DNA from: Candidatus Poseidoniaceae archaeon | Lineage (GTDB): Archaea > Thermoplasmatota > Poseidoniia > Poseidoniales > Poseidoniaceae | Assembly: GCA_965662895.1 (NCBI GenBank) | Contig: CBFIJH010000005.1 | Location: 57,928 to 121,927, forward strand | Length of the DNA stretch: 64,000 nt | Direction: 5' to 3' | Shown here: piece by piece, positions 32,401-54,933 of the stretch | Position numbering within the stretch: the stretch's first letter is position 1 | Layout of the letters: every line of letters starts with the position of its first letter | Program-made: the position numbers and the translations under genes | The notes under the pieces: model-generated | Database searches by the model: none | Seen by the model: only the letters and a program-made list of their open reading frames with translations | Told to the model about the DNA's origin: nothing

Positions 32401-32579
32401 AGAAAAAGAAAAAGCGAGCTGCTAGAGAAGCAAAGAATTCACTGTACAAGGCCCAGAAGATGGGCTTATCGGAGTCCGACTTCGCTCAAATGGCTGGATC
32501 GGTTGACCGTCAAGTCGGAGGATACGATGAGGGAATCAATCCATTTGAAGCGATGCAACGTGAACCGCCTCAACCTTAG
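29472..32579 (+). CDS. Large secreted cell-surface protein (1035 aa) with a C-terminal TM anchor and polybasic tail
   Basis: Signal peptide ...FATPILAPFASADG. No recognisable repeat family. C-terminal helix YPAVVVILLILLI followed by RRRRKKKKKKR. Confidence 0.65.
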   Translation: MEERPVWKGRFLALCFTVFFATPILAPFASADGMTTCDGVPGFSDCDDYDSNDDGTPFQQDWIRGTYDFDLQDTSTIQMTLSWAVREFDRSKVGLDDSTTSTALANDGLDEDDGIPADMIRTYFAYEPSPGAGTVGDQMLDDVQDTISELLSSGFGTVTAINTQYDGIYSEGGNTEICTTDANEDSVYDSGSGVTENNVFDPPICFSTIAEIQLSTSTFNLLENTDLELERAYQGLLIMGSELTTQFNVFAEPGHVSTFSIHPPNYATVVGVDGNGSIVPNPCTVATCAGQWTVENLNAGTDASRAEQTVSLTMGYRNTSTTSIVELDPNKEAVSLHLKVDLFDEQEVQIDFVAGINYLDTTTMDNWGISLVELSELATIPQITSDGIRLAYENGIAPLDDFTDQFPVASIGDAFSASIPGSPDIQMGQLSWVSDSVAEGIDGPAGGLNYSHSVGCSETVTPPNTISYCIEGPSAMGYDHPIYLRSTSNTFDLGLLDLIQENIPDSEFELDGKTYNTKDYFELITNEDLRRLMDAGLSIETVLDTDFLETMIPSDLPPSKITLELILPSWIVTADGSDRIILEHSASGETRNEISIAGPSPYTYNHPILNEDGETICLQTQKTCVSTSLSIDFETFDINEWTKSVSIEFGLEATAVVHRIAVPQGYYDVNDTTVRMEVIPSDLIRLIGDIMSRDEEKAISIERCLESNIKNSNACPEESRLQFNLTSDGLMQFGTDAGELLTHQIHTQVEKLETSDEGPEFSEVDISDFVIETSLAGLGSPGQTVSDEVGLSVSLKIPKVRFTLAVSSPWGDLLSGDPDAITLSLLTEDISGAFRSPLLQPMVMMVDEMSSMMTASLVSSEGITFPPLEQEALIVETGSWDTTIHEDTEFDLTGPVSFTLPKGIIVKEGTSTQGNMIITEDDEGRQVITYTIPPDGLDDEVTLRLQVTWMYLLGQFWAYPAVVVILLILLIRRRRKKKKKKRAAREAKNSLYKAQKMGLSESDFAQMAGSVDRQVGGYDEGINPFEAMQREPPQP

Positions 32580-34303
32580 CGATGCAACGATTCGTGAATT
32601 CGCTCTGCGAGGGAAGGACCAATTCCAGGTACCGTTTTCAAATCCTCAATGCTGGCATTGTTGATTCCTTGGCGACCACCGAAATGGCGCAGGAGCGACT
32701 GCAGCTTCTTCGCACCCAAACCGAGAACGTTTTCGAGAGGGTCACCTAGTCGACTCTTTTTTCGACGTTTTCGATGGAAGGTGTTGACAAACCTGTGTGC
32801 TTCATCGCGAGCATGAACAAAGACTCGTCCACGACGGTCAAGGATAATCGGGTCTTTTTCTTCCTGATGCAGGGTTTCTTCTCGTTTTGCTAAAGCAGCC
32901 AACATAAATCGGTCTTGAACACCGTGCTCGTCCAACATCGAACGTATTGTACTCAAATGCGTTTCACCACCATCGAGCAAGAGTAAATCCGGCCATTCCT
33001 CTTGTCGTTTGAGCCACCGTTCTACGACTTCTCGCATCATTCGCAAATCATCCATCGCATCCCCCTTGACGATGTAGGTCCGATACTCCTTCTTTGCTGG
33101 ACGGCCGTTGCGGAGAACAACGCTTGCTCCAACTCGCTCATCACCTTGCAATTGTGCCATATCGAAGCAAACGACGTGATTCATTTGCTCAACATTGAGC
33201 AACATTGCAGCATCATCAGCAGCACGTTGTTCGAGCGATCCGCTTGATTTGTTGGCGAGTCGAGTTACCTGAATCTTTGCGTTCTGGTCGGCAAGAGTTC
33301 GGAGCGTGACCATCTCTCCACGCATAGGTGTTCGAACTTCGACGGTTGAACCTCTTCGTTCATCCAACCACTGCTGTATTCCATCGAGAAGTGGTGTCGG
33401 TGTCAACAACAAACGTGGAGGCCTTCGGTGGATGTAGTGCTCGCTAATGAATCGGCTTACGGTTTCACCAATGTCACCACGGTGAACAAATGGCCACACT
33501 TCCTGACCTTTGACGACACCTTCATCTGCGTGCAAGACGACAAGTGCAGCCAGATCTCCCTGTTCTGCAAATCCGATGGCATCACAATCACGATACAACT
33601 TGCTTGAAACGACGTGCTGGCCTATTGTCGTTCGAATCGATCGTATGAGATCACGGAAATATGCTGCCCGTTCGAACTGCATGTTCTGGGCGCAAGCATC
33701 CATTTTTTCACCAAGTTCTTCCAAGAATTCCGTCGCCTCACCATCAAGTATTTTTTTGACGGCTCGGACTTGTTCAGCATAACCTTCACCATTGATGCAT
33801 GGTCCTGTGCATAGGCCAATATGCATGGCCAAACAACCCTGTGGAAGCAGTTCCTTGCAATCCCGTATTCCGAAATGTCGACGCAACAATTGCATGACTT
33901 GTTTTGCAGCACCTGCGTTGGGGAATGGTCCCCATCGGTGTGCTTTTTTTGGCGGATGACGTGTGTACATAATCCGGGGAAATTCTTCGTTGGTTAGGAC
34001 AAGGTAGGGATAGGATTTGTCGTCCTTGAGCATTGAGTTGAACCGCGGTTTGTGTTCTCGGATGAGTTGACGTTCGAGAATGAGTGCTTCTTGCGGTGTT
34101 GTTGTAACAATGCACTCAACATCATCGGCCCGAGCAACGAGTTCTGGTATCATTTGACGGTCGGGATTTGTTGCAAAATACGACCGGATTCGTTCATTGA
34201 GCCTCGTTGCTTTACCAATGTAGAGGACACGCCCTTCCTCTGTTTTGAAAAGATACACGCCTGGAGAAGCAGGCAAATCGATGGATGAAGCATCAACCGC
34301 CAT
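32576..34303 (-). CDS. uvrC: Excinuclease ABC subunit C
   Basis: GIY-YIG PGVYLFKTEEGRVLYIGKATRLNERIRSYF, central UvrC region, C-terminal HhH VPGIGPSLAERI. Start trimmed to MAVDASSIDLP. Confidence 0.85.
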   Translation of the reverse strand: MAVDASSIDLPASPGVYLFKTEEGRVLYIGKATRLNERIRSYFATNPDRQMIPELVARADDVECIVTTTPQEALILERQLIREHKPRFNSMLKDDKSYPYLVLTNEEFPRIMYTRHPPKKAHRWGPFPNAGAAKQVMQLLRRHFGIRDCKELLPQGCLAMHIGLCTGPCINGEGYAEQVRAVKKILDGEATEFLEELGEKMDACAQNMQFERAAYFRDLIRSIRTTIGQHVVSSKLYRDCDAIGFAEQGDLAALVVLHADEGVVKGQEVWPFVHRGDIGETVSRFISEHYIHRRPPRLLLTPTPLLDGIQQWLDERRGSTVEVRTPMRGEMVTLRTLADQNAKIQVTRLANKSSGSLEQRAADDAAMLLNVEQMNHVVCFDMAQLQGDERVGASVVLRNGRPAKKEYRTYIVKGDAMDDLRMMREVVERWLKRQEEWPDLLLLDGGETHLSTIRSMLDEHGVQDRFMLAALAKREETLHQEEKDPIILDRRGRVFVHARDEAHRFVNTFHRKRRKKSRLGDPLENVLGLGAKKLQSLLRHFGGRQGINNASIEDLKTVPGIGPSLAERIHESLHR

Positions 34304-34407
34304 ATCGAATCCTTGCATCCATAGGTCAAAAAAACCTGCATGAATTCTGTCAATCAACAGAAGGACAACATCAAATGCGATGTTGCCAAGGTAGGGTATG
34401 AGTTCCG

Positions 34408-36591
34408 ATGCTGACACCAGCCATGTTGCGGATTTTGCGTTGGTTGGATGACCACCCAACCACGCTCGAATCGGCTTGGGACGTCCCACGAACCATCTCA
34501 TTGGAAGGCATCGCCGACGGAATTGGTGTTGTTCGTTCTGCCCTTTTTCAGCCAATGAGCGTACTGGAAGATAACGAATTCCTAAAAACCAGACAAGCCC
34601 ATGTACTTGGATCAGGGCGCAGAAAACGGAAAGTTGTCCACATTACTGAAAAGGGACGCCAACAACTTCGAGAACAGGTGGAAAACCTCCCCGAGCGACG
34701 TTCAAGAGAATCGTTGAAGTTGAAAGGACAGATTCCTGAATGTACGAATTTGCACGGGCGTCAGTCTGAACTGGAATTGATGAAAAAATCCCTGGAGCAG
34801 AAAAGACCGATTCATCTACGAGGGATGCCGGGAATTGGCAAATCGACGCTCGCTCGTACCATGGTTCAGGAATTGGCTGAACGAGGAACAGAAATCCACT
34901 GGGCGGTTCTCGACGCCTACTGCGACGTGCATGAGGCGATGCAACGAATGGAGGTCGATTCACCAAGAATTCTTGAGGTTGAACATTATGCTAACATATT
35001 CGAAACCGAGAACGTTGTTCTGGTGTTTGATGATGTGCATACCATTTCTTCAAGACACAAATCATCCTTCCTCAGCTTCTTTCAAACACTCCTGAACAAC
35101 AACATCGCCTTCATGTTGATTGGAAGAGATCGAGAAACATTCTCAATCGAAGCAACCGTTGTTGATTTGGGACCGTTGGACCAATCCGATGCAATTGAAT
35201 TACTGGACCCTGAACTCGGCGAGAACAGAGCGTCAATTGTTGAAACATTGGGTGGTCACCCGCTTGCGATTTTGCTCTACAATGTCTCGACTCCACTTCC
35301 AGAGACGGATCAAGACGTTCGAGCCTACGTTGAACAGGTTGTGCTTGAACATGCCTCAACAGAGGTCCATGATGCAATGCAACCCTTCCTTGTCTTGCCA
35401 TTTCCAATCCCTGCAATGCGGATGCCCGAACCTGACCACGTTCCATTGCTCGATGAACACACGCTGTTGCGTTGGGGCGCACAGAATTCGGCAATGGAGA
35501 TGCAACATCTCATTCGCAACGTTTGTCGTTCTTCTCTTGAAGAATCTGATATTGATGCTCTCCATCAGTCTGCTATTTCACACTGGGAGAACGACGACGA
35601 CGCACTTGCGAAGATTCTTGAATTGCATCATCGGATTCAGAGAGGTGAAACGAATGTTTCAGTGCATTTGTCGCAACGCGCAAATGAATTGATGAATGCC
35701 CATTCGGGTGCTTTCGCAACTCTTTTGGATGAAGCTTTGGTCAATGAAAATGTGAACCTCGAATTGATTGAACTTGCCGCACAACATGCATTAAATCGGG
35801 CTGAACTTAACACTGCTAAAGAATACATCAAGGAGTTTGATGACCCTCGACTCGCCAACATCCGATTTCAGATTGCCCAGTATGAGGGAAAGAACGACGT
35901 CGTTCAACACTTGGAATCTTTGACCGATGGAATCGATGATCCGAATCAAAAATTACGTGTTCAACTTTCTGTTCTCTCTCGCAGCATTGATGACCTTACA
36001 CCACAGGCGACCGAGGATGACCATCGCCGCATCCATGGACTGCTCGAACGCGTCGATCTTCCTGACAAAGAAGGCGAACGCCAACGCATTTTGACCACAA
36101 TTGTCGTCATGCGACATGCGCTTGCCCTTGAACAGAGAGATTTCAATGCTGCAAATTTTCTTCTCGATCAATTGAAGAATATTGCGTTAACAGACGATCC
36201 TCTTCTTCACTATCTTTCAACAAAAACGGAACTGAAAATGTTGGAAAAAGGCTCTGCAGATGCTGCATTTACCTTGAAGAATGCAGAGCGTATCGCAACA
36301 CAGTTGAAACATCCGCTGTACAACGTTTCACTTTTCTTACTGCTTTGCGAACATCTTGTTGAAACGCAACCCCAGCGTGCTCAACTTCTCCATGAACAAA
36401 TCGATATCCAGGCCATTGAAACAATGACCGCACCATCAGCACGTCGAATCGTTGCGAAATGGTGGGAGGTGAAGTCGATGGTTGACGAGAAAGGTCGAAT
36501 TCTTGCACTGCGGGAAGCCATTCTTCGTTATCGTTCAGTAGGATGCCCAAACCGTGCTCGAAGGTTATCCAAGCGCTTGCACAGCCTGTGA
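34408..36591 (+). CDS. wHTH-STAND-type P-loop NTPase regulator (N-terminal winged helix, AAA_16-like ATPase, C-terminal helical/TPR-like)
   Basis: N-terminal ~100-aa wHTH, Walker A LRGMPGIGKSTLART, Walker B VVLVFDDVH, then ~400 aa of helical repeats. Divergent from uvrC. Confidence 0.65.
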   Translation: MLTPAMLRILRWLDDHPTTLESAWDVPRTISLEGIADGIGVVRSALFQPMSVLEDNEFLKTRQAHVLGSGRRKRKVVHITEKGRQQLREQVENLPERRSRESLKLKGQIPECTNLHGRQSELELMKKSLEQKRPIHLRGMPGIGKSTLARTMVQELAERGTEIHWAVLDAYCDVHEAMQRMEVDSPRILEVEHYANIFETENVVLVFDDVHTISSRHKSSFLSFFQTLLNNNIAFMLIGRDRETFSIEATVVDLGPLDQSDAIELLDPELGENRASIVETLGGHPLAILLYNVSTPLPETDQDVRAYVEQVVLEHASTEVHDAMQPFLVLPFPIPAMRMPEPDHVPLLDEHTLLRWGAQNSAMEMQHLIRNVCRSSLEESDIDALHQSAISHWENDDDALAKILELHHRIQRGETNVSVHLSQRANELMNAHSGAFATLLDEALVNENVNLELIELAAQHALNRAELNTAKEYIKEFDDPRLANIRFQIAQYEGKNDVVQHLESLTDGIDDPNQKLRVQLSVLSRSIDDLTPQATEDDHRRIHGLLERVDLPDKEGERQRILTTIVVMRHALALEQRDFNAANFLLDQLKNIALTDDPLLHYLSTKTELKMLEKGSADAAFTLKNAERIATQLKHPLYNVSLFLLLCEHLVETQPQRAQLLHEQIDIQAIETMTAPSARRIVAKWWEVKSMVDEKGRILALREAILRYRSVGCPNRARRLSKRLHSL

Positions 36592-36835: not shown

Positions 36836-37069
36836 TCAGTATTCCACCGCAATTAGCGTTCGCGTGTCCCGAATTCCTTCAATGGTTCTGAACTCTTTCA
36901 TGAGCAGTGCGGTGAGATTTTTTGCTGTGTTGCTGCTCACATGAGCGAGAAGATCGTACTCTCCATACAAGGCGTGGACTTCTTTGACATCAGCATGGGA
37001 GGTTATAGCGAGATAGACATCACGCTCATGGGACGGTTCGGTCTTGACAAGGATGAATGCTTCTGGCAC
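36836..37069 (-). CDS. Stand-alone Lrp/AsnC C-terminal (RAM) domain protein, tandem paralog
   Basis: 77 aa. ILVKTEPSHERDVYLAI...GEYDLLAHVSSNT...IEGIRDTRTLIAVEY. Confidence 0.7.
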   Translation of the reverse strand: MPEAFILVKTEPSHERDVYLAITSHADVKEVHALYGEYDLLAHVSSNTAKNLTALLMKEFRTIEGIRDTRTLIAVEY

Positions 37070-37167
37070 AATGTCCGCTTGAGCAGAAGGGTCTTATCGC
37101 TTTGGTTTCGTTTTTCGGTGAACATGCAAAGGGTGCTTTCAAATGGTATCGCTTTGGATTATACAAT

Positions 37168-40100
37168 ATGGAGAGGCAAAAGCGGTTCTTTGCCCTTGGT
37201 TTGTTGCTGCTTCTCCTGATGATGTCCATGGCGCCCATGGTTCAATCCTTTCACGATTCGCAGGGGAAGCCAACTGCGGTTTCAGGACGCGCTACGACCA
37301 CATGGTCCGGTACGGTGACATTGACGAGCGATTATTTTGTGAACGTTCAAGATGAACTGCTGATTACGTCGTGCACAAGTGTTGTTCTGTCTCCAGGGAT
37401 CCGAATTTACATCGATGGACGTTTGACCGTTCAGGGAACTCCTACGTGTCCGATTGTTCTGTCAAGTTCTTCGTCCACAGGCGATCATGAAGGAATACAA
37501 TTCAATTCCTCGTCGTTTGGTCGTGGTAGTACAGTGAACCACCTTCACATTGAGGATGCGATTTATGGGATTACCATGTATGGCTCAAATCCGATTTTGA
37601 ACAATGTGACCATCTTCAATCCGGACCGTGTTGGCATCGATATGTTTGGAAGCTCAAGCCCAGTCATTCGAGACTTGCATGTGGAACAGGCTGGTCGCTC
37701 CGTTGGGTTCCAGAATGATTGGCGTTACGGCATTGGATTGTCCGTTGGCGACGGATCAACACCGATTGTTCAAGGAGCATATTTCACCGACCACCAATTG
37801 CGAGGTCTCAACTTGTGGGGCGCATCTGGAGGTATTTATCGGGACATTGTCATGGACAACATATCGGGCTCCGTTCTTGGAGAGGTGGCGGGAGTATGGG
37901 TCGAAGACAGCGTTCCACTGTTCGAAAATTTAACCATCGATAAAAGCGACACGGGCATCATCGTTCGACACATTGACGATTCGGGGTATACGCGTGGTGT
38001 TTTTAGGGACGTCGACATATCGAACAGTATGTTTCGTGGCGTTTATTTGGACAAAAACAACCACACGAATTACACCAATTACGAAACAGCAGATTTCACC
38101 AATCTTACGGTCAGAGGAACTGGTTCATCTGGGGCAACGTCCCCCGGAATTGCGCTTGCAGCTATCGACATTAACGCAACAGGCGCATGGCTTGAGAATG
38201 TCCTTGTAGATGACGCATCGTCTGTCGGCATCCGAATGTTCTTTGTTGATTCAACGACCACACTCCGAAATGTGACCATACGTGACGCTGGTGAAGTTGG
38301 ACAAGGTGCACATTCAGCGGGATTAAGCATCCAAACCTCTTACTTTGCTGCACATGTTGAAGATCTTGAAATCAGTGGCTCCCCCGGGCCAGGTGTTCAT
38401 TCGTCCAGTGGTGGCTCTCTTCAGGGGTCCGACTGGAATCTTCACAACAACTCAGAACATGGCTTGTTCATCGATTCTGCAACTGTTGTTGTTGACGGAA
38501 TCTCGACGATGAAAAATGGATATTCGGGCGTTCATGTGTTTGACTCGCGTTATGTGAGCATTTCAAATCTAACCTCTGTCAACGATGGTGATCTTGGTTC
38601 GGACGCTATGGAACAAGCGGGTCTTTCGTACCAAAAATCCAACGATTTAGAAACAAACTCAGGAGATGTTGTTTGTAGGAATTGTCACGTTGAATCCTCG
38701 CAAGGCCATGGTGTCTACGTTCGTGATTCCGTTGACCTTTGGCTGCACAACCTTTCGATATCGGACATCGACCCAACACTTCCAGCAATGTACGTCGATA
38801 ACGGAGGCTTGACGCTTGGCACACAAGGTGGACGCATCAATCTCTTCAATTCACAGATCGAGCATGAATCAACAACGCAACATGCCTTGTACATTCAACA
38901 AGCAGCGGGTCATATCGATGGACTATCATTGATTGGAAATCACAGTGGAATCTATTGGGATGCAAACCATAACGGGAATTTCCCATCGACATTAAGCAAT
39001 ACTGAATTTGTAGGCAGTGAATGTCTCAAACTTGTGAATCATCCCGACCTTGGAGGTTATGGAAATACGATCGGTTCGGATTGTGAAGGACGGATATGGG
39101 TCGAAAATTCCGATGTGAATTTCTCCAATTTGGTTGATGTAAGTGGTACACACATTTTGGACCTTGATGCAGCATCAACCATGCATTTGCATCAACCCAG
39201 TAACATTGATCTCACGATTGCAAACATTCCATCAGGCGCATCCATCGACGTTGCTTGGGATGTTACCGTGTGGGTTGTAAACAATCTCTCCAACGGCATT
39301 CCAAATGCCTATGCCAACGTGAGTTTCACACAATTTGAACCATCTGTGTCGGAGTTTACCAACGATATTGGTGTTGTACAATTGATCGATTTCATTGGAC
39401 AACGTTGGACGAATTCTGGTGCATCGGCCATGAATGATGTTGCTGTTGAATGCGGTTATGATAGCGAGAGCAACACTACGACGGTAAGTTTGGATGGTGA
39501 CAAAGTGATGTATTGTGTTCTCGAATTGGACAACCAACCCCCATTTTTGAACTGGACTTCACCGATGGACGGGGATGTGTTCCCTTCACAGGGACAGGTT
39601 TTGTTTGATGCTCAAGAGTCCTGGGATTTGGACGACGATCCTCTCACACTCACGTGGACTTCCTCCCTTGATGGCGTCATCTCATCAACACAAAGCACGG
39701 CCCCGTTTACGGTCAACGATGGCGTATCTGGGATTACGCTTAGTGATGGTATTCATGATATAACGCTGGACGTTTGTGACAATGCTGGACATTGTGTATC
39801 AGAAACACGTACAATCGAATTAACGAATCTCGCTCCGGAACTCAACGTGTCCTTTGAACCGGGCCTGACCCAGTGGAATGAACTCATTATGCCTCAAACG
39901 GGAACGGTCACCATCAATACGACAGGGACATTTGACCCTGAAGGTGATGATTTTGCTTGTACAATTTCCTTTGGAGGGTACAACCGACAAGGTACTGGAT
40001 GGGGCAATCAATATGTCTGTCCAGAGTTGTTGACGTACACCTTTGATCATTATTCGGACGACCCACCAGCATCGTTCTTCTTGAACGTCGTTGCATTTGA

Positions 40101-41877
40101 TGAAGTAGGGAATTCAGATACCTACACCGTTGAAGTCAAGTTGTACAATGAGATGCCAACCGCTGCTTTCACGCTCGAACGTAATGGAACAGCGAGTGAG
40201 GATGTGATTTTCTTCAATGGAAGCAGTTCAGCAGACCCAGAAAACAATCCAATTTCGTTTGAATGGTGGTCCAATGTGGATGGAACGCTCATGGTTGGTC
40301 AAGGTATTGAGAACATTTCTTGGTACGGACATCTCTCTCGTGGTGTTCATCAAATTGAGTTGCGAATCACCGACGATCGTATGGATCATGGAGGTCAAAT
40401 GTCGGTTGTCTCTCAATTGATTACCGTCGACAATTCTGCACCACGAGCTGTCATTGAAGAATTGGCTCTGTTCGATGACCTTGACTCGTCCGTTTTGATT
40501 CCGTTCAGTGCAAATGGTAGTGGCGATTTCGATTCAGGATGTTTTACATTCCCAAGTGAGGGGACCTGGCACTGTGCAGAGAACGAGCCTGCAGCTGGCT
40601 CCGAATTCCTGCAAATCGATTGGTCGAGCGACATCGATGGACGATTGACACCAGAAGATGAGGATTGGTTGACCTTTGAAACGCGTCTCTCCGCAGGCAC
40701 GCACCAGATTACACTCACGCTCAGCGATGGCATCAATCCCAACGTTTCCGTTTCGACAACACTTGAGGTTGCTGAATCAGCCCCTGTCTTGGTGTTGGAT
40801 TCTCCGGTAAATGGTAGCCAATTCGCCTCGAGTGATTTGATTGTTATCGATGCACGAAACAGCGTTGATTACGATGAGGATGACTTTACACTCACCTTGC
40901 GAAGTTACGAGGATTCATCTTCGACGTATCTCCCCATTCTGTCCGGTGTTTCAACATCGGTTGTTCATGAAATTCAACTCGATGCTGGATTAAGAGATTT
41001 GCAAATCGAATTACTGGATGCGACTGGAAAATCTCGCGTTGAATCGCTCGAACTACTCATTCTCCCCAGCGACCCAGAGGCCGTGATTGTATCGCCTGCT
41101 AATCTTGAATCGTTCGATCCAGGAGTAACCATCGTCTTCGAAGGTTCCTCCAGTGATGCTGATCAAGATCTCATTGTTCGAGAATGGCGATTGCACCAAC
41201 CAGGAGTCCAAACAAGCATTCTGAGTACCCAGTCAACATTCTCCCAGGTCTTTGTTCCCGGTTCGCATCATGTTTCGTTGTACGTTCAAGATGCCCGTGG
41301 AGCTTCCTCGGAGCAGCACATCAACTTCACAGTGCGATCAAGCCTTCCTGAATTGGTTCAGACCAGTTTGGAACTGTCACAGACCGAGTTCATCTCAGAC
41401 GAGCAAGTTACACTCGATGTAGCGGTCCAGCTGATTGATGCGGATGGAACAACCAACGATGTGCGCGCCGATATCGTCCACAACATTCAGACGTGGACAT
41501 TCAATCTCAGCGATGATGATGGCGATGGAATTTGGACTGGCTCGATTGAATTCCAGCCTTCGGGTGCAGGACAACCAAGTTTCAAGGTCATTGCAACCGA
41601 TGGAGAAGGCGATTCTGCCAGTGTTGATGTTCTTTACACGCCGCTGAAAGTTGTTGACGCCGAGGGTGAAGGATTTATGTCAACGGGTGTCCTTCTCGGT
41701 GCAGTTTCGATTGTTGTTCTCGTGGCCCTGCTTATCACGCTCCAGCGTCGAAGGCAAGCAGCAGAGGAAATGAAAATCATTGATTCATGGGGCGTCTTTG
41801 GTGATGGAGCAGTCGAGGATGATGCATCTGAACAAGAAGTGAATGAGGACGAAAAGTTGGATTGGGAGAACGTCTGA
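37168..41877 (+). CDS. Giant type-I surface protein: parallel beta-helix (PbH1) domain plus ~6 PKD/Ig-like domains and a C-terminal TM anchor
   Basis: Start at MERQKRFFALGLLLLLLMMSMAPMVQS (signal peptide). PbH1-like repeats NPILNNVTIFNPDRVGIDMFGSS, GIGLSVGDGSTPIVQGAYF. PKD-like modules marked by LTWTSSLDGV, FEWWSNVDGT, IDWSSDIDGR. TM helix GVLLGAVSIVVLVALLI followed by an acidic tail. Confidence 0.75.
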   Translation: MERQKRFFALGLLLLLLMMSMAPMVQSFHDSQGKPTAVSGRATTTWSGTVTLTSDYFVNVQDELLITSCTSVVLSPGIRIYIDGRLTVQGTPTCPIVLSSSSSTGDHEGIQFNSSSFGRGSTVNHLHIEDAIYGITMYGSNPILNNVTIFNPDRVGIDMFGSSSPVIRDLHVEQAGRSVGFQNDWRYGIGLSVGDGSTPIVQGAYFTDHQLRGLNLWGASGGIYRDIVMDNISGSVLGEVAGVWVEDSVPLFENLTIDKSDTGIIVRHIDDSGYTRGVFRDVDISNSMFRGVYLDKNNHTNYTNYETADFTNLTVRGTGSSGATSPGIALAAIDINATGAWLENVLVDDASSVGIRMFFVDSTTTLRNVTIRDAGEVGQGAHSAGLSIQTSYFAAHVEDLEISGSPGPGVHSSSGGSLQGSDWNLHNNSEHGLFIDSATVVVDGISTMKNGYSGVHVFDSRYVSISNLTSVNDGDLGSDAMEQAGLSYQKSNDLETNSGDVVCRNCHVESSQGHGVYVRDSVDLWLHNLSISDIDPTLPAMYVDNGGLTLGTQGGRINLFNSQIEHESTTQHALYIQQAAGHIDGLSLIGNHSGIYWDANHNGNFPSTLSNTEFVGSECLKLVNHPDLGGYGNTIGSDCEGRIWVENSDVNFSNLVDVSGTHILDLDAASTMHLHQPSNIDLTIANIPSGASIDVAWDVTVWVVNNLSNGIPNAYANVSFTQFEPSVSEFTNDIGVVQLIDFIGQRWTNSGASAMNDVAVECGYDSESNTTTVSLDGDKVMYCVLELDNQPPFLNWTSPMDGDVFPSQGQVLFDAQESWDLDDDPLTLTWTSSLDGVISSTQSTAPFTVNDGVSGITLSDGIHDITLDVCDNAGHCVSETRTIELTNLAPELNVSFEPGLTQWNELIMPQTGTVTINTTGTFDPEGDDFACTISFGGYNRQGTGWGNQYVCPELLTYTFDHYSDDPPASFFLNVVAFDEVGNSDTYTVEVKLYNEMPTAAFTLERNGTASEDVIFFNGSSSADPENNPISFEWWSNVDGTLMVGQGIENISWYGHLSRGVHQIELRITDDRMDHGGQMSVVSQLITVDNSAPRAVIEELALFDDLDSSVLIPFSANGSGDFDSGCFTFPSEGTWHCAENEPAAGSEFLQIDWSSDIDGRLTPEDEDWLTFETRLSAGTHQITLTLSDGINPNVSVSTTLEVAESAPVLVLDSPVNGSQFASSDLIVIDARNSVDYDEDDFTLTLRSYEDSSSTYLPILSGVSTSVVHEIQLDAGLRDLQIELLDATGKSRVESLELLILPSDPEAVIVSPANLESFDPGVTIVFEGSSSDADQDLIVREWRLHQPGVQTSILSTQSTFSQVFVPGSHHVSLYVQDARGASSEQHINFTVRSSLPELVQTSLELSQTEFISDEQVTLDVAVQLIDADGTTNDVRADIVHNIQTWTFNLSDDDGDGIWTGSIEFQPSGAGQPSFKVIATDGEGDSASVDVLYTPLKVVDAEGEGFMSTGVLLGAVSIVVLVALLITLQRRRQAAEEMKIIDSWGVFGDGAVEDDASEQEVNEDEKLDWENV

Positions 41878-41900
41878 GGCCACTTTATTTTGTAGGCCAT

Positions 41901-41916
41901 AGTATAATATATAACA
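41901..41916 (+). promoter_or_regulatory. TATA-like element (tagtataatatataac) about -25 from the ATG at 41934
   Basis: AT-rich box in the 56-bp gap between two large genes, with the right spacing for a leaderless archaeal promoter. Confidence 0.35.
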
Positions 41917-41933
41917 GAACTCCAGTGCGACGC

Positions 41934-44195
41934 ATGAGAAAAGCACTCACGCTCATCCTCGTTGGACTAATGATAGGAACAACCTTGCCAGCAAGCGTTG
42001 CAGCCGAAGAGACAGAACCGATTGCATTTGGTATTGAATACAACTATTCGAATCTTAACACAGATATTGCTTCGATGATTGGTGTCGATCTTCAGGAAGT
42101 CTTCCAGGAAGTGATGGCTGCTGGTGATGATGTGGGAATCGATTTGCTCATTGGTAGTGTAACATCCGGTTCGACAACCATCGTTTTTGAACAGTATGAC
42201 GGCCCGATGAAGACGCTTACAGTCGATGGAACGCAGACAGACTTTTCCACAAAAGTAACCGAACTTACCGTGCGTCACGGACTCCTTGATGACTTTGCAG
42301 TTCACTCGGAGTGGAGCGATTCCTACGGAGGAATCGACCTGACAATTGGTTATGATTCCGAGCAACTCTTCAATGCAGATGTCGTCTACACAGAGTACTT
42401 TGATTCTGAAATGGGTCTTCATGGAATGGATATGGAGATGGACGTTGAAGCGGAAATTGAATACGCCTTTGGAATAAACGGAGAACTCTCTGGCGATGGC
42501 GAAACCATGCCGTTCGACATCGAACTCAAACTTGGTACATCTTTTGAAATCAACAACGGTTTGCTCGAAGTCCGCATGGATGAAGCATCTCCTTTGTACA
42601 CAGAGATGGTAAACCTGCAACCGGGTCAAACATTGACGTGGAATTGTGGAACAGACGAAAGATATGTTGAATCCGAATTCGACGATGTTGATGTTGGGGA
42701 TTTATGCTCTGAGCGCAACATCCACTACGAGACAGAGACATCAGTTCTCCTCGAATTGACCGGAATTCCAACGGAAGAATTTGGTCTTCCGGAAGGAGAT
42801 TTTGATTTTACTGTTTCAGACACTGTTACCGACATGTATGATGGTGATGTTGAACTTTTCTTCATGGGTGGAGGAATGGAATTGCTTGATGAACCTACAC
42901 AAATGATTACCATTGACGATGGAAGCATGATCGAAGTTCACCAAGCCTATGCTTCACCTACTCCACTTGCGTTCCCTGCAATGTGGGCAATGATGTGGGC
43001 AAACTCTGTTGTTGGTAGCGGAGATTATCCTGGTATTGTCGATGCGTTGTTGGGCAATGAGGACATTGACGACGCATTTGGCGGATGGTTTGATGAGATG
43101 CTTGAATCTGCAGAAGAAGATGATGATGACTACTTCGTCTGTGCGAACCTCAATGAAATTCCTCGTCAATATGTCGAAGATGGATTCGATGATTGCGGCG
43201 ACAACTCAGATGAAGAATTCGTGTGCGATGATGGAGGTGTTATCCCCGGAGGCTGGGTCAATGATGGATGGGAGGATTGTTCAAATGGTGAGGATGAAAC
43301 CAATGTTCAACAAGAATTTGTATATGTTAATGTTTTCATGAACGGAGCAAGCGAATCAGAAATGAACTTCGATTACGAAGTGCAGGGCATGGAATATGAT
43401 GAGAATTACGAGATTTCTTGGACAGTCACGGATGATGAAGGAACCACATCCGATGCAGGTTCCGCTGCTATTACAGACGGTTCCTACAGTGCATACGAAA
43501 GTGCTAATGCAGAAATCAATGGGTTTGGTGAATACTGCGTTGATATTGTCGTTACTCAAATGAGCGATGATGAAATTGTTGGAACACAGCAGGAATGTGA
43601 ATCGGTCTCGCAGGATATCGAGCCGAGCGATCGTTTGATGACCATTGCTGAGGCACTCGCAGAATCGACCCTAGACAACACACTCGAGTCATTCGGTCAG
43701 AATCTTGAGAACCGTTTGTCGAACTTTGAGGACGATTTCGATGTCGCTTACGAAGATGGTATGGCTTATGCGCTGTATGATGCTAACGACGATCGCTTTG
43801 TTGGTTTCCAGCTGGTCGCATCACCTGGTGGGACACAGTGGTACACGCTCATTGGACCTGAGAGTTCTGCGTACGGTACGCCACAACGCGGCCTGAGCAT
43901 CACATACTTCACTGGAGTCGATGCAACACAAGAAGCGGCCGAGATTGAGGACCAAACGGATTTGTCAGACCTTGTTGATGTGACACAGCACAACACCGAT
44001 GAGGTTGAGGCAGTCAACACGGGTGTCGACCCTGCTACACTCCCTGACAACACAAACGATGACGTTGATAATACGAGTGAAGCAACAGAAGATGATGTAT
44101 CGGATCTCCTTCCGTTCCTCTCGCCGATTACAACTCTTGCAATGATTGCGCTTGCAGGAATGTTTGTATCAATCCGTTACAAGGATGAAGAATGA
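41934..44195 (+). CDS. Large acidic type-I surface protein with two LDL-receptor-class-A-like Ca-cage modules
   Basis: Signal peptide MRKALTLILVGLMIGTTLPASVAA. FVCANLNEIPRQYVEDGFDDCGDNSDEE and FVCDDGGVIPGGWVNDGWEDCSNGEDE match the D-G-x-x-D-C-x-D-x-S-D-E end of LDLa. C-terminal helix TTLAMIALAGMFVSI. Confidence 0.65.
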   Translation: MRKALTLILVGLMIGTTLPASVAAEETEPIAFGIEYNYSNLNTDIASMIGVDLQEVFQEVMAAGDDVGIDLLIGSVTSGSTTIVFEQYDGPMKTLTVDGTQTDFSTKVTELTVRHGLLDDFAVHSEWSDSYGGIDLTIGYDSEQLFNADVVYTEYFDSEMGLHGMDMEMDVEAEIEYAFGINGELSGDGETMPFDIELKLGTSFEINNGLLEVRMDEASPLYTEMVNLQPGQTLTWNCGTDERYVESEFDDVDVGDLCSERNIHYETETSVLLELTGIPTEEFGLPEGDFDFTVSDTVTDMYDGDVELFFMGGGMELLDEPTQMITIDDGSMIEVHQAYASPTPLAFPAMWAMMWANSVVGSGDYPGIVDALLGNEDIDDAFGGWFDEMLESAEEDDDDYFVCANLNEIPRQYVEDGFDDCGDNSDEEFVCDDGGVIPGGWVNDGWEDCSNGEDETNVQQEFVYVNVFMNGASESEMNFDYEVQGMEYDENYEISWTVTDDEGTTSDAGSAAITDGSYSAYESANAEINGFGEYCVDIVVTQMSDDEIVGTQQECESVSQDIEPSDRLMTIAEALAESTLDNTLESFGQNLENRLSNFEDDFDVAYEDGMAYALYDANDDRFVGFQLVASPGGTQWYTLIGPESSAYGTPQRGLSITYFTGVDATQEAAEIEDQTDLSDLVDVTQHNTDEVEAVNTGVDPATLPDNTNDDVDNTSEATEDDVSDLLPFLSPITTLAMIALAGMFVSIRYKDEE

Positions 44196-45130
44196 GCGAA
44201 GGCGAAGGGTTTCAACCCGTTGCTAGATGGCGAATTGTCGCCAGTCTTCTTCTGATCGCTCAACTTGTGGTTTTACTCGCTTTCAAATCGGCCCTCGAGG
44301 AAGAATCCTGGTTTGTTGGAAGCGTCCAAGCAACGGTCGAAGAAGGGCCACTGCAACTTGAGGGCGTATCCGTCAACTTGTCCATCGATATGCAGAATGA
44401 GCAAGACGACCTTAGCATCGAGTTTTTTGGTCCACTTCGATTGAGTCATTGGCAAAATGAACGCGATGACCGTGCAGCACTATCCGAACAAGAAGCTGAA
44501 GCGTATGATGAAAATCTGAACGAAACGTTTGACGCTCCATCACCAGATTCAATCAAATCAACAACGTTCGCACTCATCCATGTTGGAATCGGATTTTCGG
44601 TTTTTTTGATGATGGTTCTTTGCTTCGATTTAAGGAAACAAGCAAGTCAGTCATGGATTACATATTCTCGTCGCTTCGTTTCGTTTGTATCCTTTGTGAA
44701 TACATTGGCGATTCTGCTGCTCATTCTTCTGGTTCTACCTGGCGGTTGGTTAGCATCGGTTGCAGGGAATCCTCAACAATTTAGCAACAGTGATGAAAAT
44801 GATGCATTTCTTGCCCATGCTGATTTCTCGCAAGAATTCAGCATTGGGCTGGATGGTTTTTCCTTGGAATTTGAAGCGAGTGGATACGATATCGGTATGG
44901 TTCGTCCTGCAAATCGAAGTGCAGTTGAAGCCCAACCCCCACTTCCTGATACGCCTGATGCAGAATCCTTCATCTTGATTTCAGGTGAAATGCGTGCTGA
45001 TACGCCTTCTTATGTTACTGAAATGATGTATTACTGTTTCATTTTATGGGTAGTTTTACCGCTTGCTCTCCTCATTCAACAACGAACAGCAATCGATGCA
45101 CGACTTGCACCGATCAATTTGAATGGTTGA
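44192..45130 (+). CDS. Hypothetical membrane protein co-transcribed with the preceding surface protein
   Basis: ATGA overlap at 44192-44195. N-terminal helix, an acidic ectodomain-like stretch, and 3 further helices. Confidence 0.55.
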   Translation: MSEGEGFQPVARWRIVASLLLIAQLVVLLAFKSALEEESWFVGSVQATVEEGPLQLEGVSVNLSIDMQNEQDDLSIEFFGPLRLSHWQNERDDRAALSEQEAEAYDENLNETFDAPSPDSIKSTTFALIHVGIGFSVFLMMVLCFDLRKQASQSWITYSRRFVSFVSFVNTLAILLLILLVLPGGWLASVAGNPQQFSNSDENDAFLAHADFSQEFSIGLDGFSLEFEASGYDIGMVRPANRSAVEAQPPLPDTPDAESFILISGEMRADTPSYVTEMMYYCFILWVVLPLALLIQQRTAIDARLAPINLNG

Positions 45131-45954: not shown

Positions 45955-46947
45955 TTACGACCATCGAGCACGTAGGCGACGGAGTGAAAGTTTCACAGCA
46001 AGACGAATCTTTCTCCATTTTGACAAGGAAGGACGCTTGCTAAACACGTCGCCTGAGCGGCGCACGATCTCGTGGAAAATAGCATCATAGGCTTCACACA
46101 TCAGTTGTGGTTGCAATTGGGATTTTGAATCAAGATATTCAAACAAATGCTGTGCTGATTCTTGGTGTCGTCGAACGATTTCGATGTATTCTTGAACAAA
46201 AGACTTCCACCGATGGTTGGTTCCAAATTCAGTATTCCCGAGCTCTGAAATATCGATATTGTATTCGCCTAATGCATTGATTGGAAGGTAAATTCGACCG
46301 CTTCGATAATCTTCAGAAACGTCACGAAGGATGTTGATGAGTTGCAATTGGATGCCCATATCGATGGCGTGAATTCTCCCTCCGGCATCCTCACATCCAT
46401 AAATTTCGATGAGAACCAAACCTACTGCAGAAGCCACCTTGTAACAGTATGCACGGACCTCGTCCCAAGTTTTGTGACGAACTTCGAACAGATCGTCTTC
46501 CATTCCTTCGATAATGGTTTCAAAATCAGAAAGTCGAACAGGGAAATGCTTGAACACTTCGTTGATGGCGATGAAAATGGCTTCATCTTGCGTTGCTGAT
46601 TCATCACCTGCGAACAATCGTGTGAGTCGCTCCTTGGCATCAACAAGGGCCATCAATCGGTATCGGTGCTCCTCAGGAGGGTTGTTCATTGCCGTTTGGT
46701 GGATGCTCTGGAGAAGTCCGTCTCGCTCATCCACGAGTTTGTTGAGGGCTTCGGATTCTCGAACAACTGGTCGAGAGTCTCCATCAGCAATATCATCGAG
46801 GTAACGGCACAGTGCGTAGACCGCATGAACTGCACGACGTTTCTTGAAGGGCAGTGCTGAGAAACTAGCAAAAAATGTGGATGACGCACGACGACAAATT
46901 TCTTCACATTCAAGAAAAGCCTCTTCAATGGAAGTTGTTTTGTTCAT
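45955..46947 (-). CDS. crtB: Phytoene/squalene synthase family (phytoene synthase)
   Basis: Asp-rich motifs YALCRYLDDIADG and ILRDVSEDYRSGRIYLP. YCYKVASAVG. Confidence 0.8.
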   Translation of the reverse strand: MNKTTSIEEAFLECEEICRRASSTFFASFSALPFKKRRAVHAVYALCRYLDDIADGDSRPVVRESEALNKLVDERDGLLQSIHQTAMNNPPEEHRYRLMALVDAKERLTRLFAGDESATQDEAIFIAINEVFKHFPVRLSDFETIIEGMEDDLFEVRHKTWDEVRAYCYKVASAVGLVLIEIYGCEDAGGRIHAIDMGIQLQLINILRDVSEDYRSGRIYLPINALGEYNIDISELGNTEFGTNHRWKSFVQEYIEIVRRHQESAQHLFEYLDSKSQLQPQLMCEAYDAIFHEIVRRSGDVFSKRPSLSKWRKIRLAVKLSLRRLRARWS

Positions 46948-46969
46948 TTTTTCACCTCAATTCTATTGT

Positions 46970-47425
46970 TTATGAATGCGTGTTGTTTTCCTTGTTCATC
47001 TGCATTGTAATGAAATGGATGGCGAGTCCTACTGGCATGAGCATAACGCCGAACAAAATTGCCACTTGCGCAGCAGTTTTGTTGATTTCTGTTTCAACAC
47101 TTCGCTTCCAAATCCATCGCGTGACGATGATGTCACCAATCACAAAGTGCGTCCATGCAAGAACAGCACCATCGTCTGTGCCAAGGACTTCAGCAAGGCC
47201 CGAAACGAAACCGCTCAGGGTACCGTCCCCGATCATATCGCTGAGAGCACCGAGATTCATTGCAAGAACGATCAGATAAGCAATCAACGGTCCAAGGACA
47301 AACCATGGTCCATCCATCCATTTTTTCGTTCGTTCAGCATATGGTTGAAGGAGCATAAGCATCCAGAACGGACCAACCCACATCGATGCTGCGAAGAAGG
47401 CGACCAGAAGCATTGTTTCAACCAT
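46970..47425 (-). CDS. DUF4281/ABA4-like 4-TM membrane protein
   Basis: 151 aa. FAASMWVGPFWMLMLLQPYAERTKKWM resembles the DUF4281 opening. Family call is from memory. Sits between crtB and crtI. Confidence 0.45.
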   Translation of the reverse strand: MVETMLLVAFFAASMWVGPFWMLMLLQPYAERTKKWMDGPWFVLGPLIAYLIVLAMNLGALSDMIGDGTLSGFVSGLAEVLGTDDGAVLAWTHFVIGDIIVTRWIWKRSVETEINKTAAQVAILFGVMLMPVGLAIHFITMQMNKENNTHS

Positions 47426-47988
47426 TAAATCACCTTCTCATATGCTTGTTCGATTTCGTCAATCGAGTTCTCGGTCGGATAATAGGTGTCACTTTCCCAC
47501 TGGATGACGCCGTTTTGGTCGATGAGGAACAACGCAGGTGTTCCAGGAAGACCATAGTATTCAAAAATGGATTGACTCAAATCGGCTTGATCTTCGATTC
47601 GTTGGATTGAATCATCGTCTGTTGGCAAAACAATCGGCCATGGAGTGTAGTGGTCGCTTTCCGTGAAACCAAATTCTTCAGCGACGTCCTCTTTGGTTTC
47701 AAATCGGAGGTACCGTTCAACAGAAACGATTTGCAAAGGTGGCTCCTGATTCATCCAATCGTTGTGATGTTCTCGCAAATCATCGGTCCAATCTTTGCAG
47801 CCAGTACATCCTACTCCGATGAAGAGCACGAGGACGGGCCCCTCGCTCAAGTTTTCTTTCATCGAATACATTGGTCCACCGTCTTCCTCCCGGTCGAGGG
47901 TTTCGACAGTAAAGACACGTCCGTCCTCAGGGGTCGGTTCAATGCAGCCTGCCAGGAGCAAAATGAGCACAAGGGCAACGAAACGCAC
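47425..47988 (-). CDS. Thioredoxin-fold lipoprotein (TlpA/ResA-like thiol-disulfide oxidoreductase)
   Basis: MRFVALVLILLLAGC (lipobox) and a CxxC GCTGC after the strand VLVLFIG. Stop overlaps the DUF4281 start by 1 nt. Confidence 0.65.
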   Translation of the reverse strand: MRFVALVLILLLAGCIEPTPEDGRVFTVETLDREEDGGPMYSMKENLSEGPVLVLFIGVGCTGCKDWTDDLREHHNDWMNQEPPLQIVSVERYLRFETKEDVAEEFGFTESDHYTPWPIVLPTDDDSIQRIEDQADLSQSIFEYYGLPGTPALFLIDQNGVIQWESDTYYPTENSIDEIEQAYEKVI

Positions 47989-47997
47989 GTTGCTCCC

Positions 47998-49605
47998 TCA
48001 AGCGTTGGTCGGCGTTCCTGCTTCTTTCGCAGTTGTCACCTTTCGTTGAGCTTTCCGTCCACGAGGCGAGCGGCGAATGCCTTCGAACCAAGTATCGACG
48101 CCGTTCCAATCCGGGTCAATTCCGAGGTCATCCAACACGAGTTTGCTGCTGATTCGAGCGCTCTCAAAGATGGTCGGTAGTCCACTGCCGGGATGTGTAC
48201 CTCCACCGACAATGTAGAGGTTGTTTGCTTCTTCAAACCGGTTGTGCGGGCGTCGCCAGAGCATTTGTTTGAGGTCGTGTGTGAGGTTAAACACTGCACC
48301 GCGATAGATGTCAGATGCACCCCAGTCATCGGGTGTGATTACGGTCTCTGAAACGATGTGATCGCCAATATCATCGTACCCAAGTTTTGCCAGTTGTTTG
48401 ACAACAATTTCTCTGAAATCTGCTTTGATGTCATCCCAAACGATGCTCTCGTGCTGGTTTGGTACAGGTACGAGAACGTAAATCGTCGAGTGTCCCTCAG
48501 GAGCGAGCGAGTCATCGGTTATTGACGCATTTTGAACGTAGACGGATGGGTCGTCCCATGTCAAACGATGATTGGTGATATCTTTGAGATTCTTTTCGTA
48601 CTCTGAGGATGCATAGATTTGATGATGTGGTAAATCGTATTGCTTGTCAACACCCAAGTAGAGCATAAAGGTTGAACAAGAATATCCTTTCTTTTCCAGT
48701 TTCTTATCGGACCATTTCTTGCGCTTCTCATTGGGGACGAGTGTTGTCATTGCATGAGCAAAATCTGCGTTGACAACCACTCTGTCGGCCATTATTTCAG
48801 CGCCGTCAATCCGGACGCCTTTGACGGTTTTACCTTCATAGATGAGGGACTCAACCGGAGTGCTGAGTCGAATATTGACGCCCATTTCTTCCGCAATTTC
48901 AGCCATTCGAGCAGTGATGCTTCCTAGGCCTCCTTTGGCGTGGAAAATGCCGTGCTCGTACTCAAGGAAGGCGAGAATCGTAAACAGCGAAGGGGCATGG
49001 AACGGGCTCATTCCCAGGTACTTGGTTTGGAACGACATTGCGAGTCGAATGCGTTCATCATCGAAATGCTTACTGAGATCTCCAGCAACGCTGGCCCAAG
49101 GCTTGAGGACAGAAGCCACCCGCATGGCTCGTCTCGAAAGAATGTCCAACGGACTTCGCCATGGAGTTTGCAAACACTTCTTGCTGAGGTCAAGCTTTCT
49201 TCGGTTTTGTTTGACGTACTTTTTGAATCCTTCAGCGTTTTTGTCACCGGCAAGCTCTCGAATACGTTCTGTCATTTCTTCGAGGTTGCTTGTCGCATCG
49301 ATGTGGCCTCCAGCGCCAAAGACAAGCCTGTACATCGGGTCCAATGGCATCAAACCGAGTTCCTTGTGTGCGTCTCGACCAATTGCTTGGAAGATCTCTT
49401 CGATAACTTCTGGATAGTGGAAGAAGGTTGGTCCACGGTCGAACGTGTATCCGTCCTTTGTGTACAATCTGGTGCGTCCACCGACGGCATCGGCTTTCTC
49501 GAGTACGGTCACGTTGACACCTGAATGGGCGAGGAGAAGTGCAGAAGCAAGACCGCCCGGTCCTGACCCTACGATGATTGCGGTTGGTTTATTCTGAGTA
49601 CTCAT
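47998..49605 (-). CDS. crtI: Phytoene desaturase family FAD-dependent oxidoreductase (CrtI/CrtD-like)
   Basis: N-terminal dinucleotide fold IIVGSGPGGLASALLLAHSGVNVTVLEKADAVGGR. ~500-aa CrtI-like core plus a basic C-terminal extension. Confidence 0.8.
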   Translation of the reverse strand: MSTQNKPTAIIVGSGPGGLASALLLAHSGVNVTVLEKADAVGGRTRLYTKDGYTFDRGPTFFHYPEVIEEIFQAIGRDAHKELGLMPLDPMYRLVFGAGGHIDATSNLEEMTERIRELAGDKNAEGFKKYVKQNRRKLDLSKKCLQTPWRSPLDILSRRAMRVASVLKPWASVAGDLSKHFDDERIRLAMSFQTKYLGMSPFHAPSLFTILAFLEYEHGIFHAKGGLGSITARMAEIAEEMGVNIRLSTPVESLIYEGKTVKGVRIDGAEIMADRVVVNADFAHAMTTLVPNEKRKKWSDKKLEKKGYSCSTFMLYLGVDKQYDLPHHQIYASSEYEKNLKDITNHRLTWDDPSVYVQNASITDDSLAPEGHSTIYVLVPVPNQHESIVWDDIKADFREIVVKQLAKLGYDDIGDHIVSETVITPDDWGASDIYRGAVFNLTHDLKQMLWRRPHNRFEEANNLYIVGGGTHPGSGLPTIFESARISSKLVLDDLGIDPDWNGVDTWFEGIRRSPRGRKAQRKVTTAKEAGTPTNA

Positions 49606-54417: not shown

Positions 54418-54933
54418 TTGTGGATTATTCGGATTATGACTGGCGACTTCGATGTAGGCGTGGCTGCTGCGGTCACCAACGATTCCGGCATCCTACTGGT
54501 CAAAGAATCCAAGGGCCCCTACGCCGGGTTCTGGGGCTTGCCAAAAGGATACGTCGAGCCGAACGAATCGATCGAATCAGCCGTACTACGGGAACTCAAA
54601 GAGGAAACGCACCTCGACGGGAAAATCTCAGGATTCCTTGGCTTAAGAACGACCAAGACAAACAAAGGCGTTGGTTTGTTTCTCTGCTACAAAATCGAAC
54701 CAACGAGCACGGAAATCCGACCACAACAGGATGAGATATCCGATGTGAAGTTTTTCAATCTTGAATCCTTTGACCAACTCGAATGGGTTTCTGCAGCAAT
54801 GCGAGGGTTTGCTGAAGTAGCACTCAAAGACACATCGCTCCCCCTTGTCGACCTGAGCCATGAATCAAAGCGCCCGTATCATCTCGTATTCAGCGATGGG
54901 CGTGCAACACTTTTGGATGAGGTGATTCAATGA
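54418..54933 (+). CDS. NUDIX hydrolase
   Basis: Nudix box GLPKGYVEPNESIESAVLRELKEETHL. Confidence 0.7.
   Translation: MWIIRIMTGDFDVGVAAAVTNDSGILLVKESKGPYAGFWGLPKGYVEPNESIESAVLRELKEETHLDGKISGFLGLRTTKTNKGVGLFLCYKIEPTSTEIRPQQDEISDVKFFNLESFDQLEWVSAAMRGFAEVALKDTSLPLVDLSHESKRPYHLVFSDGRATLLDEVIQ

Follow-up and report, generated by a model that had tools for sequence, protein, structure and literature searches.

The low-density lipoprotein receptor class A (LDLa) module is a textbook extracellular module of animals, and its fold is thought to need three disulfides and one Ca2+. In the canonical form (PF00057), known from LDLR, VLDLR, ApoER2 and LRP1/2, six cysteines are paired as C1-C3, C2-C5 and C4-C6 around a calcium cage of the type D-G-x-x-D-C5-x-D-x-S-D-E, which supplies four acidic Ca ligands. 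The N-terminal G2B domain of glucosidase II beta (PRKCSH; PDB 5F0E and 5HJO), a protein of the eukaryotic endoplasmic reticulum lumen, holds a pair of LDLa-like Ca2+-binding subdomains. Here we describe two tandem LDLa-like modules in a 753-aa protein encoded in a 64,000-nt window (the whole stretch of DNA analysed) of contig CBFIJH010000005.1 from a Candidatus Poseidoniaceae archaeon. An initial annotation of the window had proposed such a pair in an archaeal surface protein; this was borne out, with both coordinates and peptides correct (Table 1). The protein is a membrane-anchored extracellular protein from a conserved three-gene surface-protein block, and its modules are in all probability homologues of LDLa in a reduced form, that is, a Ca2+-caged mini-domain with one disulfide, as regards fold and chemistry.

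Both modules have the length and register of canonical LDLa from Phe-x-Cys2 to the SDE motif, and share with it the hairpin Gly, the Ile-Pro, the aromatic residue before the cage, the tandem head-to-tail arrangement and the cage itself, with all four acidic Ca ligands (Asp/Asp/Asp/Glu, with SDE) present in each module. They are 27–28 residues long, in the same frame and directly adjacent; unlike in canonical proteins there is no inter-module linker, and module 2 starts directly after the SDEE of module 1. Each module contains exactly two cysteines, C427 and C445 in module 1 and C455 and C473 in module 2 (residue numbers of the modules and Cys pairs are those of the 777-aa open reading frame (ORF) described below), which correspond to canonical Cys2 and Cys5 and show the same spacing of 18. 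The initial annotation was therefore right that the cysteines are reduced in number, while its count of two to three per module was too loose. Only two of the six hallmark cysteines are kept; without Cys1, Cys3, Cys4 and Cys6, the modules have neither the C1-C3 nor the C4-C6 disulfide. The Cys4 position is taken by Asn (N467 in module 2, and 87% in the archaeal family) or by Glu/Asp.

The Pfam profile Ldl_recept_a, with which the initial annotation had suggested a HMMER search, matches the whole protein with 34.4 bits (E 2.5e-8), and each module alone exceeds its gathering score of 24.1 (Table 1). The match runs over profile positions 6/7–35/36 of 37 and takes in everything between the conserved Phe that precedes Cys2 and the SDE motif, both included, so that the acidic cage recognised in the initial annotation stands, and the likeness extends well beyond the C-terminal half of the consensus to which it had been assigned. 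A PROSITE-type four-Cys signature did not match, and its Cys-relaxed version matched both modules. Searching PDB sequences with phmmer retrieved megalin/LRP2 (E 1.8e-16) and VLDLR (1e-9), followed by LDLR, relaxin receptors, factor I, LRAD3 and glucosidase II beta; the alignments are gapless across Phe, Cys2, Gly, Ile-Pro, the aromatic residue, D-G-x-x-D-Cys5 and the SDE motif, and module 2 aligns in this way with LRP2 and VLDLR modules. When 140 archaeal 2-Cys modules were compared by hhalign with 129 canonical six-Cys modules from metazoan LRP-like matches, the probability was 98.5% (E 2.9e-15) over 32 ungapped columns, with the archaeal cysteines in the register of Cys2 and Cys5, a variable polar residue at Cys3 and Asn at Cys4. 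For G2B the resemblance is structural only, as the PRKCSH-like profile PF12999 gives the tandem segment 6.9 bits against 34.9, below gathering, and the Cys complement and cellular context differ.

Ligand positions in the crystal structure of LDLR LR5, which we take to be W193 O, D196, G198 O, D200, D206 and E207, map onto predicted ligands D440, D444, D450 and E451 in module 1, where Y437 and F442 would contribute their backbone carbonyls, and onto D468, D472, D478 and E479 in module 2, with W465 and W470 as the carbonyl donors. Since the profile, the cage and the predicted fold agree with LDLa and the six-Cys, three-disulfide pattern is absent, we class the modules as a reduced single-disulfide LDLa variant and not as canonical LDLa.

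The surface protein is extremely acidic (D+E 168 versus K+R 16, pI 4.05, Asp+Glu 22%), as are the neighbouring surface ORFs, and for this reason a composition artefact needed excluding. The initial annotation itself had named an acidic low-complexity coincidence, in which chance D/E-rich strings resemble the DxSDE cage without structural meaning, as the outcome that would undo it. Composition-preserving shuffles of the 65-aa segment gave LDLa matches in 0 of 9 cases at E<=10, however, and both real modules pass a curated threshold. The non-acidic landmarks (Phe, Cys2, Gly, Ile-Pro, the aromatic residue, Gly and Cys5) align without gaps, and a six-frame scan of the 64 kb found the cage motif nowhere outside the two modules.

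Conservation points in the same direction. In an alignment with 120 orthologues of at least 68% identity (counts below are over 121 sequences), all eight cysteines of the protein are invariant and fall into four local pairs, 262/282, 427/445, 455/473 and 559/579. In module 1, F425, C427, I433, D440, G441, D444, C445, D447, S449, D450 and E451 are invariant (121 of 121), and in module 2 so are C455, N467, C473, E477, D478 and E479, with D468 kept in 113 and D472 in 117 sequences. Residues 401–425, in contrast, are a block of low conservation, and the upstream poly-acidic linker varies freely; such conserved modules beside a freely varying linker are the signature of a structured, selected element. 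Taken with the shuffles and the profile scores, this makes chance acidity an extremely improbable explanation, and we set it aside. In one clade of orthologues, to which P0042 and P0146 belong, the module 2 hairpin is longer by a 4-residue insertion (FWCTDNDGNSWQISPWSVNDGWEDC) and the Cys spacing is 22; the Cys pair and cage are kept, and the score falls below Pfam detection. Because this variant loses its Pfam match, Pfam-based module counts are underestimates.

The structural comparison suggested in the initial annotation (AlphaFold followed by Foldseek) also agreed with it. The full-length AlphaFold model made with 27 orthologues was uninformative for the modules (mean predicted local distance difference test score (pLDDT) 47.9, modules below 50). 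A tandem-module model of 68 residues, built on a 35-row alignment including module pairs from paralogous families, reached a mean pLDDT of 86.9, with 49 residues at or above 90, module 1 above 90 and a predicted template modelling score of 0.69; the network that predicted it had LDLa structures in its training, and the model represents the polypeptide without Ca2+. In the prediction, each module consists of a two-stranded hairpin, then a short helical turn and a loop, which is the LDLa fold of an N-terminal beta-hairpin, Ca-binding loop and short helical turn. The top 50 Foldseek matches of this model in the PDB were LDLa pairs only, with probabilities of about 1.0 and TM-scores of 0.40–0.45, and included ApoER2 LA1-2 (E 9.2e-5), VLDLR, megalin, LDLR LA3-4 with receptor-associated protein (RAP), glucosidase II beta, CD320 and factor I; the large global root-mean-square deviations of the alignments arise because the inter-module orientation varies.

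It could be argued that an archaeal Ca2+ loop, comparable to those of EF-hand, TSP3 or dockerin, arrived at a DG..DC.D.SDE cage independently. The modules are short, four of the six hallmark cysteines are absent and the six-Cys PROSITE-type signature is unmatched, other Ca2+ motifs (EF-hand and TSP3) are used in the same proteins, and sub-threshold matches limited to the cage do occur elsewhere, e.g., in viral-contig proteins (profile positions 23–36). Such convergence is nevertheless quite unlikely in our view, given that the likeness covers 30–32 ungapped positions including the N-terminal hairpin F-x-C-x-x-G-x-x-I-P outside the cage, that the retained cysteines are exactly one canonical disulfide pair at canonical spacing, and that the predicted fold retrieves LDLa structures alone. 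The viral-contig proteins just mentioned, from IMG/VR (L032:979-1644, L033:3881-4546 and L034:3875-4600), are small secreted proteins of 222–242 aa with one YLNDGWEDCVDGSDE cage each and Asn at the Cys4 position. They were considered as LDLa modules in viruses or bacteria and rejected, with Pfam covering only profile positions 23–36 at about 14 bits, which is sub-threshold.

The initial annotation regarded a prokaryotic version of the module as a rarity, and this did not hold. When 1.84 billion representative proteins were searched with a profile built from the tandem modules, 1866 of them matched at E<=1e-3, and at E<=1e-10 there were still 267. Among the best 150 matches, 36 were low-Cys proteins (1–4%) in which all modules (in a few, at least 80% of them) are of the 2-Cys type, and the others were Cys-rich and canonical. 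Named members of the 2-Cys clusters all come from metagenome-assembled genomes (MAGs) of Poseidoniales, Thermoplasmatota or an 'archaeon', and the same 2-Cys module recurs in dozens of Poseidoniales surface-protein families. The consensus of 181 such modules is F-x-C-D-[DN]-G-x-x-I-P-x-x-W-V-N-D-G-x-x-D-C-x-D-G-[SE]-D-E-P, and module 1 of the 753-aa protein family (ANLNEIP, with Glu/Asp in place of Cys4) forms a divergent subtype. Each protein contains 2–19 copies, often together with lipobox-like N-termini, PGF-CTERM anchors, EF-hands and bacterial-type TSP3 repeats; PF00057 matched all nine 2-Cys proteins tested (E 2e-12 to 5e-51), and the relatives P0121, P0127 and P0217 pass the PGF-CTERM profile PF18204. 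The true paralogues of the 753-aa protein (P0152, P0164, P0240, P0257 and P0225) have N- and/or C-terminal regions in common with it at 28–35% identity and carry two, three or four modules, and other 2-Cys proteins share the module alone. Across the lineage, the module is thus a shuffled cassette of variable copy number (2–19) in surface proteins. Several proteins on short metagenome contigs (P0149, P0150, P0181, P0204 and P0243) show intermediate Cys patterns, lacking Cys4 and having two to three cysteines upstream of the cage; they could be informative for how cysteines were lost or gained.

Some of these proteins have already been named. NCBI uses 'low-density lipoprotein receptor class A repeat-containing protein' for MED5567946.1, MEC7504348.1 and MDA1167525.1, which have the same module type, lineage and extracellular anchored architecture as the protein described here, and most orthologues are already tagged PF00057 in the precomputed Pfam column; at database level the domain call is therefore known. 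A full-text literature search for LDLa in archaea, Marine Group II, Poseidoniales or prokaryotes found no paper discussing such modules; one apparent match, PMC11471779, was a false positive in which 'LdLam' abbreviates laminarin. The single-disulfide variant and its expansion in Poseidoniales thus appear to be undescribed as a distinct archaeal form.

The great majority of canonical LDLa modules are metazoan, and those canonical matches whose names were checked were animal proteins (a crinoid LRP2-like protein and proteins of a snail, a hemichordate and a ctenophore), so a gene of some marine eukaryote on a contaminating or chimeric contig has to be considered. This is hardly conceivable here. 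In a scan covering one genome per species, 31 independent related loci were found, nearly all in MAGs of Ca. Poseidoniaceae, Poseidoniales or 'Methanobacteriota/Euryarchaeota archaeon', i.e., Marine Group IIa, and since the syntenic relatives sit in Ca. Poseidoniaceae/Poseidoniales MAGs, an archaeal origin is supported. Gene order is identical at every locus spanning the region (1606-aa beta-helix/PKD protein, LDLa protein, 312-aa membrane protein), with a family 2 glycosyltransferase (GT2) and phytoene synthase beyond the 312-aa gene on the other strand. The genes are packed compactly in the prokaryotic manner, a start and a stop codon overlapping by 4 nt, UvrC and photolyase are among the neighbouring genes, and paralogues bear archaeal PGF-CTERM signals. 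The same block, with about 80–95% aa identity to the window, is also present on CAXQWT010000061.1 (L001, Salipiger bermudensis) and CALDQY010000054.1 (L019, uncultured Rhodobiaceae); because the block is that of Poseidoniaceae, both are probably archaeal contigs mis-binned into bacterial MAGs.

How the modules may work is read here from their profile membership, conservation, predicted fold, distribution and synteny. Each unit of about 28 residues would form a short beta-hairpin followed by a loop wrapping one Ca2+, held by four acidic side chains and two backbone carbonyls. A single disulfide (C427-C445 or C455-C473), equivalent to canonical Cys2-Cys5, would pin the hairpin to the cage. The unit would manage without the other two disulfides found in animals, Asn or an acidic residue (Glu) replacing Cys4. 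Seawater contains about 10 mM Ca2+, and in this Ca-rich, oxidising medium the modules would be permanently metal-loaded and constitutively folded. In the 753-aa protein they would then make a compact, rigid and strongly acidic connector between the N-terminal beta-rich region and the Ig-like domain. From their place between larger domains, their differing copy number in paralogues and the co-occurrence of other extracellular Ca motifs, we infer that the modules are mainly rigid, acidic, modular connectors or stalk elements.

By analogy with receptors of the LDLR family, a secondary and less certain role may be the docking of Lys/Arg-bearing ligands on an aromatic-plus-acidic face. Such docking is established for LDLR-family modules, the LDLR LA3-4/RAP complex (PDB 2FCW) being among the Foldseek matches. 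One may go further and propose ligand capture, and not spacing, as the main role, with the protein acting as an adhesin or receptor; the partner captured might be the beta-helix/PKD protein of the same operon, a surface protein of particles or algae, or a peptide. In support of this, the aromatic-plus-acidic triad is kept (Y437/D440/D444 and W465/D468/D472), the conserved three-gene surface block suggests a complex, and arrays of up to 19 modules resemble avidity-type receptors. The docking aromatic of module 2, however, lacks conservation (of the 121 sequences, 57 have W, 43 have S and 10 have D at this position), and the candidate operon partners are themselves very acidic (pI 4.16 and 4.20). 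A docking role is weakened by both points, and we regard capture as the less probable main function, although one with a real chance of being right; it is compatible with a reduced, Ca2+-caged LDLa module in fold and chemistry and differs from the connector reading in main function alone.

As for the direction of evolution, the module may be an ancient prokaryotic one, may have passed from a eukaryote to an archaeon with loss of cysteines, or may have moved the other way. To hypothesize, the single-disulfide, Asn-substituted module of Poseidoniales would be an independent, ancient prokaryotic LDLa lineage and not a recent degenerate copy of an animal one, a proposal which we consider improbable though worth stating. 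It might then stand near a minimal ancestral 'calcium cage plus one disulfide' unit that was later elaborated to the six-Cys module, or alternatively it might have been donor or recipient in an old archaeon-eukaryote transfer. If true, abundant marine archaea would supply a naturally minimal system in which to ask to what extent Ca2+ alone specifies the LDLa fold, and this would bear on the source of a hallmark 'animal' extracellular module.

Whatever the direction, a strictly conserved version with Cys2-Cys5 only is a natural minimal LDLa for studies of folding and Ca-dependence, and the families gathered here are a concrete data set for the question of where 'metazoan' extracellular modules originated. 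Marine Group II is among the most abundant planktonic archaea, and we know of no cultured representative. The modules give a handle on the largely uncharacterised, very acidic and Ca-rich surface of Poseidoniales, with regard to adhesion, particle association and possibly virus receptors. This value is tempered since LDLa-repeat names are already given to such proteins by automated annotation.

The mechanical ORF call for the host gene is 41862..44195 (+), frame +3, with a TTG start at 41862 and 777 aa. Orthologues cover 97% of this query and begin with MRKALTL, for which reason ATG 41934 is the likely true start, giving the 753-aa protein. Behind the N-terminal signal peptide come a beta-rich region and the two LDLa-like modules; these are followed by an Ig-like beta-sandwich, a helical stretch and another beta region, and an acidic linker leads to the C-terminal transmembrane (TM) anchor. 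The signal peptide is of Sec type (MRKALTLILVGLMIGTTLPASVAA), and hydrophobic segments lie at aa 4–22 and aa 722–740 of the surface protein; the signal peptide and C-terminal hydrophobic anchor together define a type I extracellular protein. The Ig-like domain is the sole confident part of the full-length AF2 model (pLDDT 74–86), and Foldseek aligned about 110 of its residues at 2.8 A with glycoside hydrolase family 2 (GH2) Ig-like domains, a porphyran carbohydrate-binding module (CBM), the Wzt carbohydrate-binding domain (CBD) and fn3, all generic beta-sandwiches.

Many Poseidoniales 2-Cys proteins combine a PGF-CTERM anchor with a lipobox-like N-terminus, whereas the 753-aa protein has an LLPF...TM anchor, a variant common to paralogues P0164, P0225 and P0257. 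This anchor resembles the PGF-CTERM sorting signal without matching it: for TIGR04126 / PF18204, the C-terminal 56 aa had no NCBIfam match at E<=1 and the whole-protein Pfam search had none either, and an NCBIfam search with the whole 753-aa protein returned no family. The idea that the protein is an archaeosortase substrate was consequently dropped.

Table 1. Features of the surface-protein locus in the window (positions in nt).
Feature	Position	Strand	Basis or remark
Beta-helix/PKD/Big surface protein, 1606 aa, C-terminal TM anchor	37057..41877	+	Pfam Beta_helix, PKD, Big_9
Gene for acidic type I surface protein, 753 aa	41934..44195	+	ORF list and orthologue alignment
Poly-acidic linker EEDDDDY before module 1	43113..43133	+	Direct reading; sequence variable among orthologues
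LDLa-like module 1, FVCANLNEIPRQYVEDGFDDCGDNSDEE, aa 425-452	43134-43217	+	Pfam 25.4 bits alone
LDLa-like module 2, FVCDDGGVIPGGWVNDGWEDCSNGEDE, aa 453-479	43218-43298	+	Pfam 29.0 bits alone
Ig-like/CBM-like beta-sandwich, ~aa 485-584 of ORF	43314..43613	+	Full-length AF2 model; holds invariant Cys pair 559/579
C-terminal membrane anchor LLPFLSPITTLAMIALAGMFVSIRYKDEE	44112..44195	+	Hydrophobic segment; followed by RYKDEE tail
312-aa protein, four hydrophobic segments	44192..45130	+	Adjacency conserved in all related loci reaching it

The upstream 1606-aa gene is a probable operon partner of the LDLa gene. On the downstream side, the ATG of the 312-aa gene overlaps the stop of the LDLa gene (ATGA, 4 nt), which suggests translational coupling. 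No tRNA genes (ARAGORN) and no Rfam families at the gathering threshold were found in window positions 1–64000.

Directly upstream of the surface-protein block, 34408-36591 (+) encodes a 727-aa STAND/AAA-type NTPase-domain protein, whose AAA_16, nSTAND3 and NB-ARC-like domains all score near or below gathering. Two further acidic ORFs were noted. The first, at 29472-32579 (+), has 1035 aa, pI 4.08 and 13 Cys, and matched none of the Pfam families at E<=1e-3. The second, at 57853-60399 (+), has 848 aa, pI 4.05 and 20 Cys, with no Pfam match; its DTDEDGFVDADDDCD at 58357-58374 resembles a TSP3-type calcium motif, and it may be a Ca-binding surface protein. Genes for UvrC, phytoene synthase, a phytoene-desaturase-like amine oxidase and a photolyase-like protein lie at 32576-34555 (-), 45955-49605 (-) and 54930-56420 (+), and this set of light-related and DNA-repair genes would suit a photoheterotroph of the sunlit ocean.

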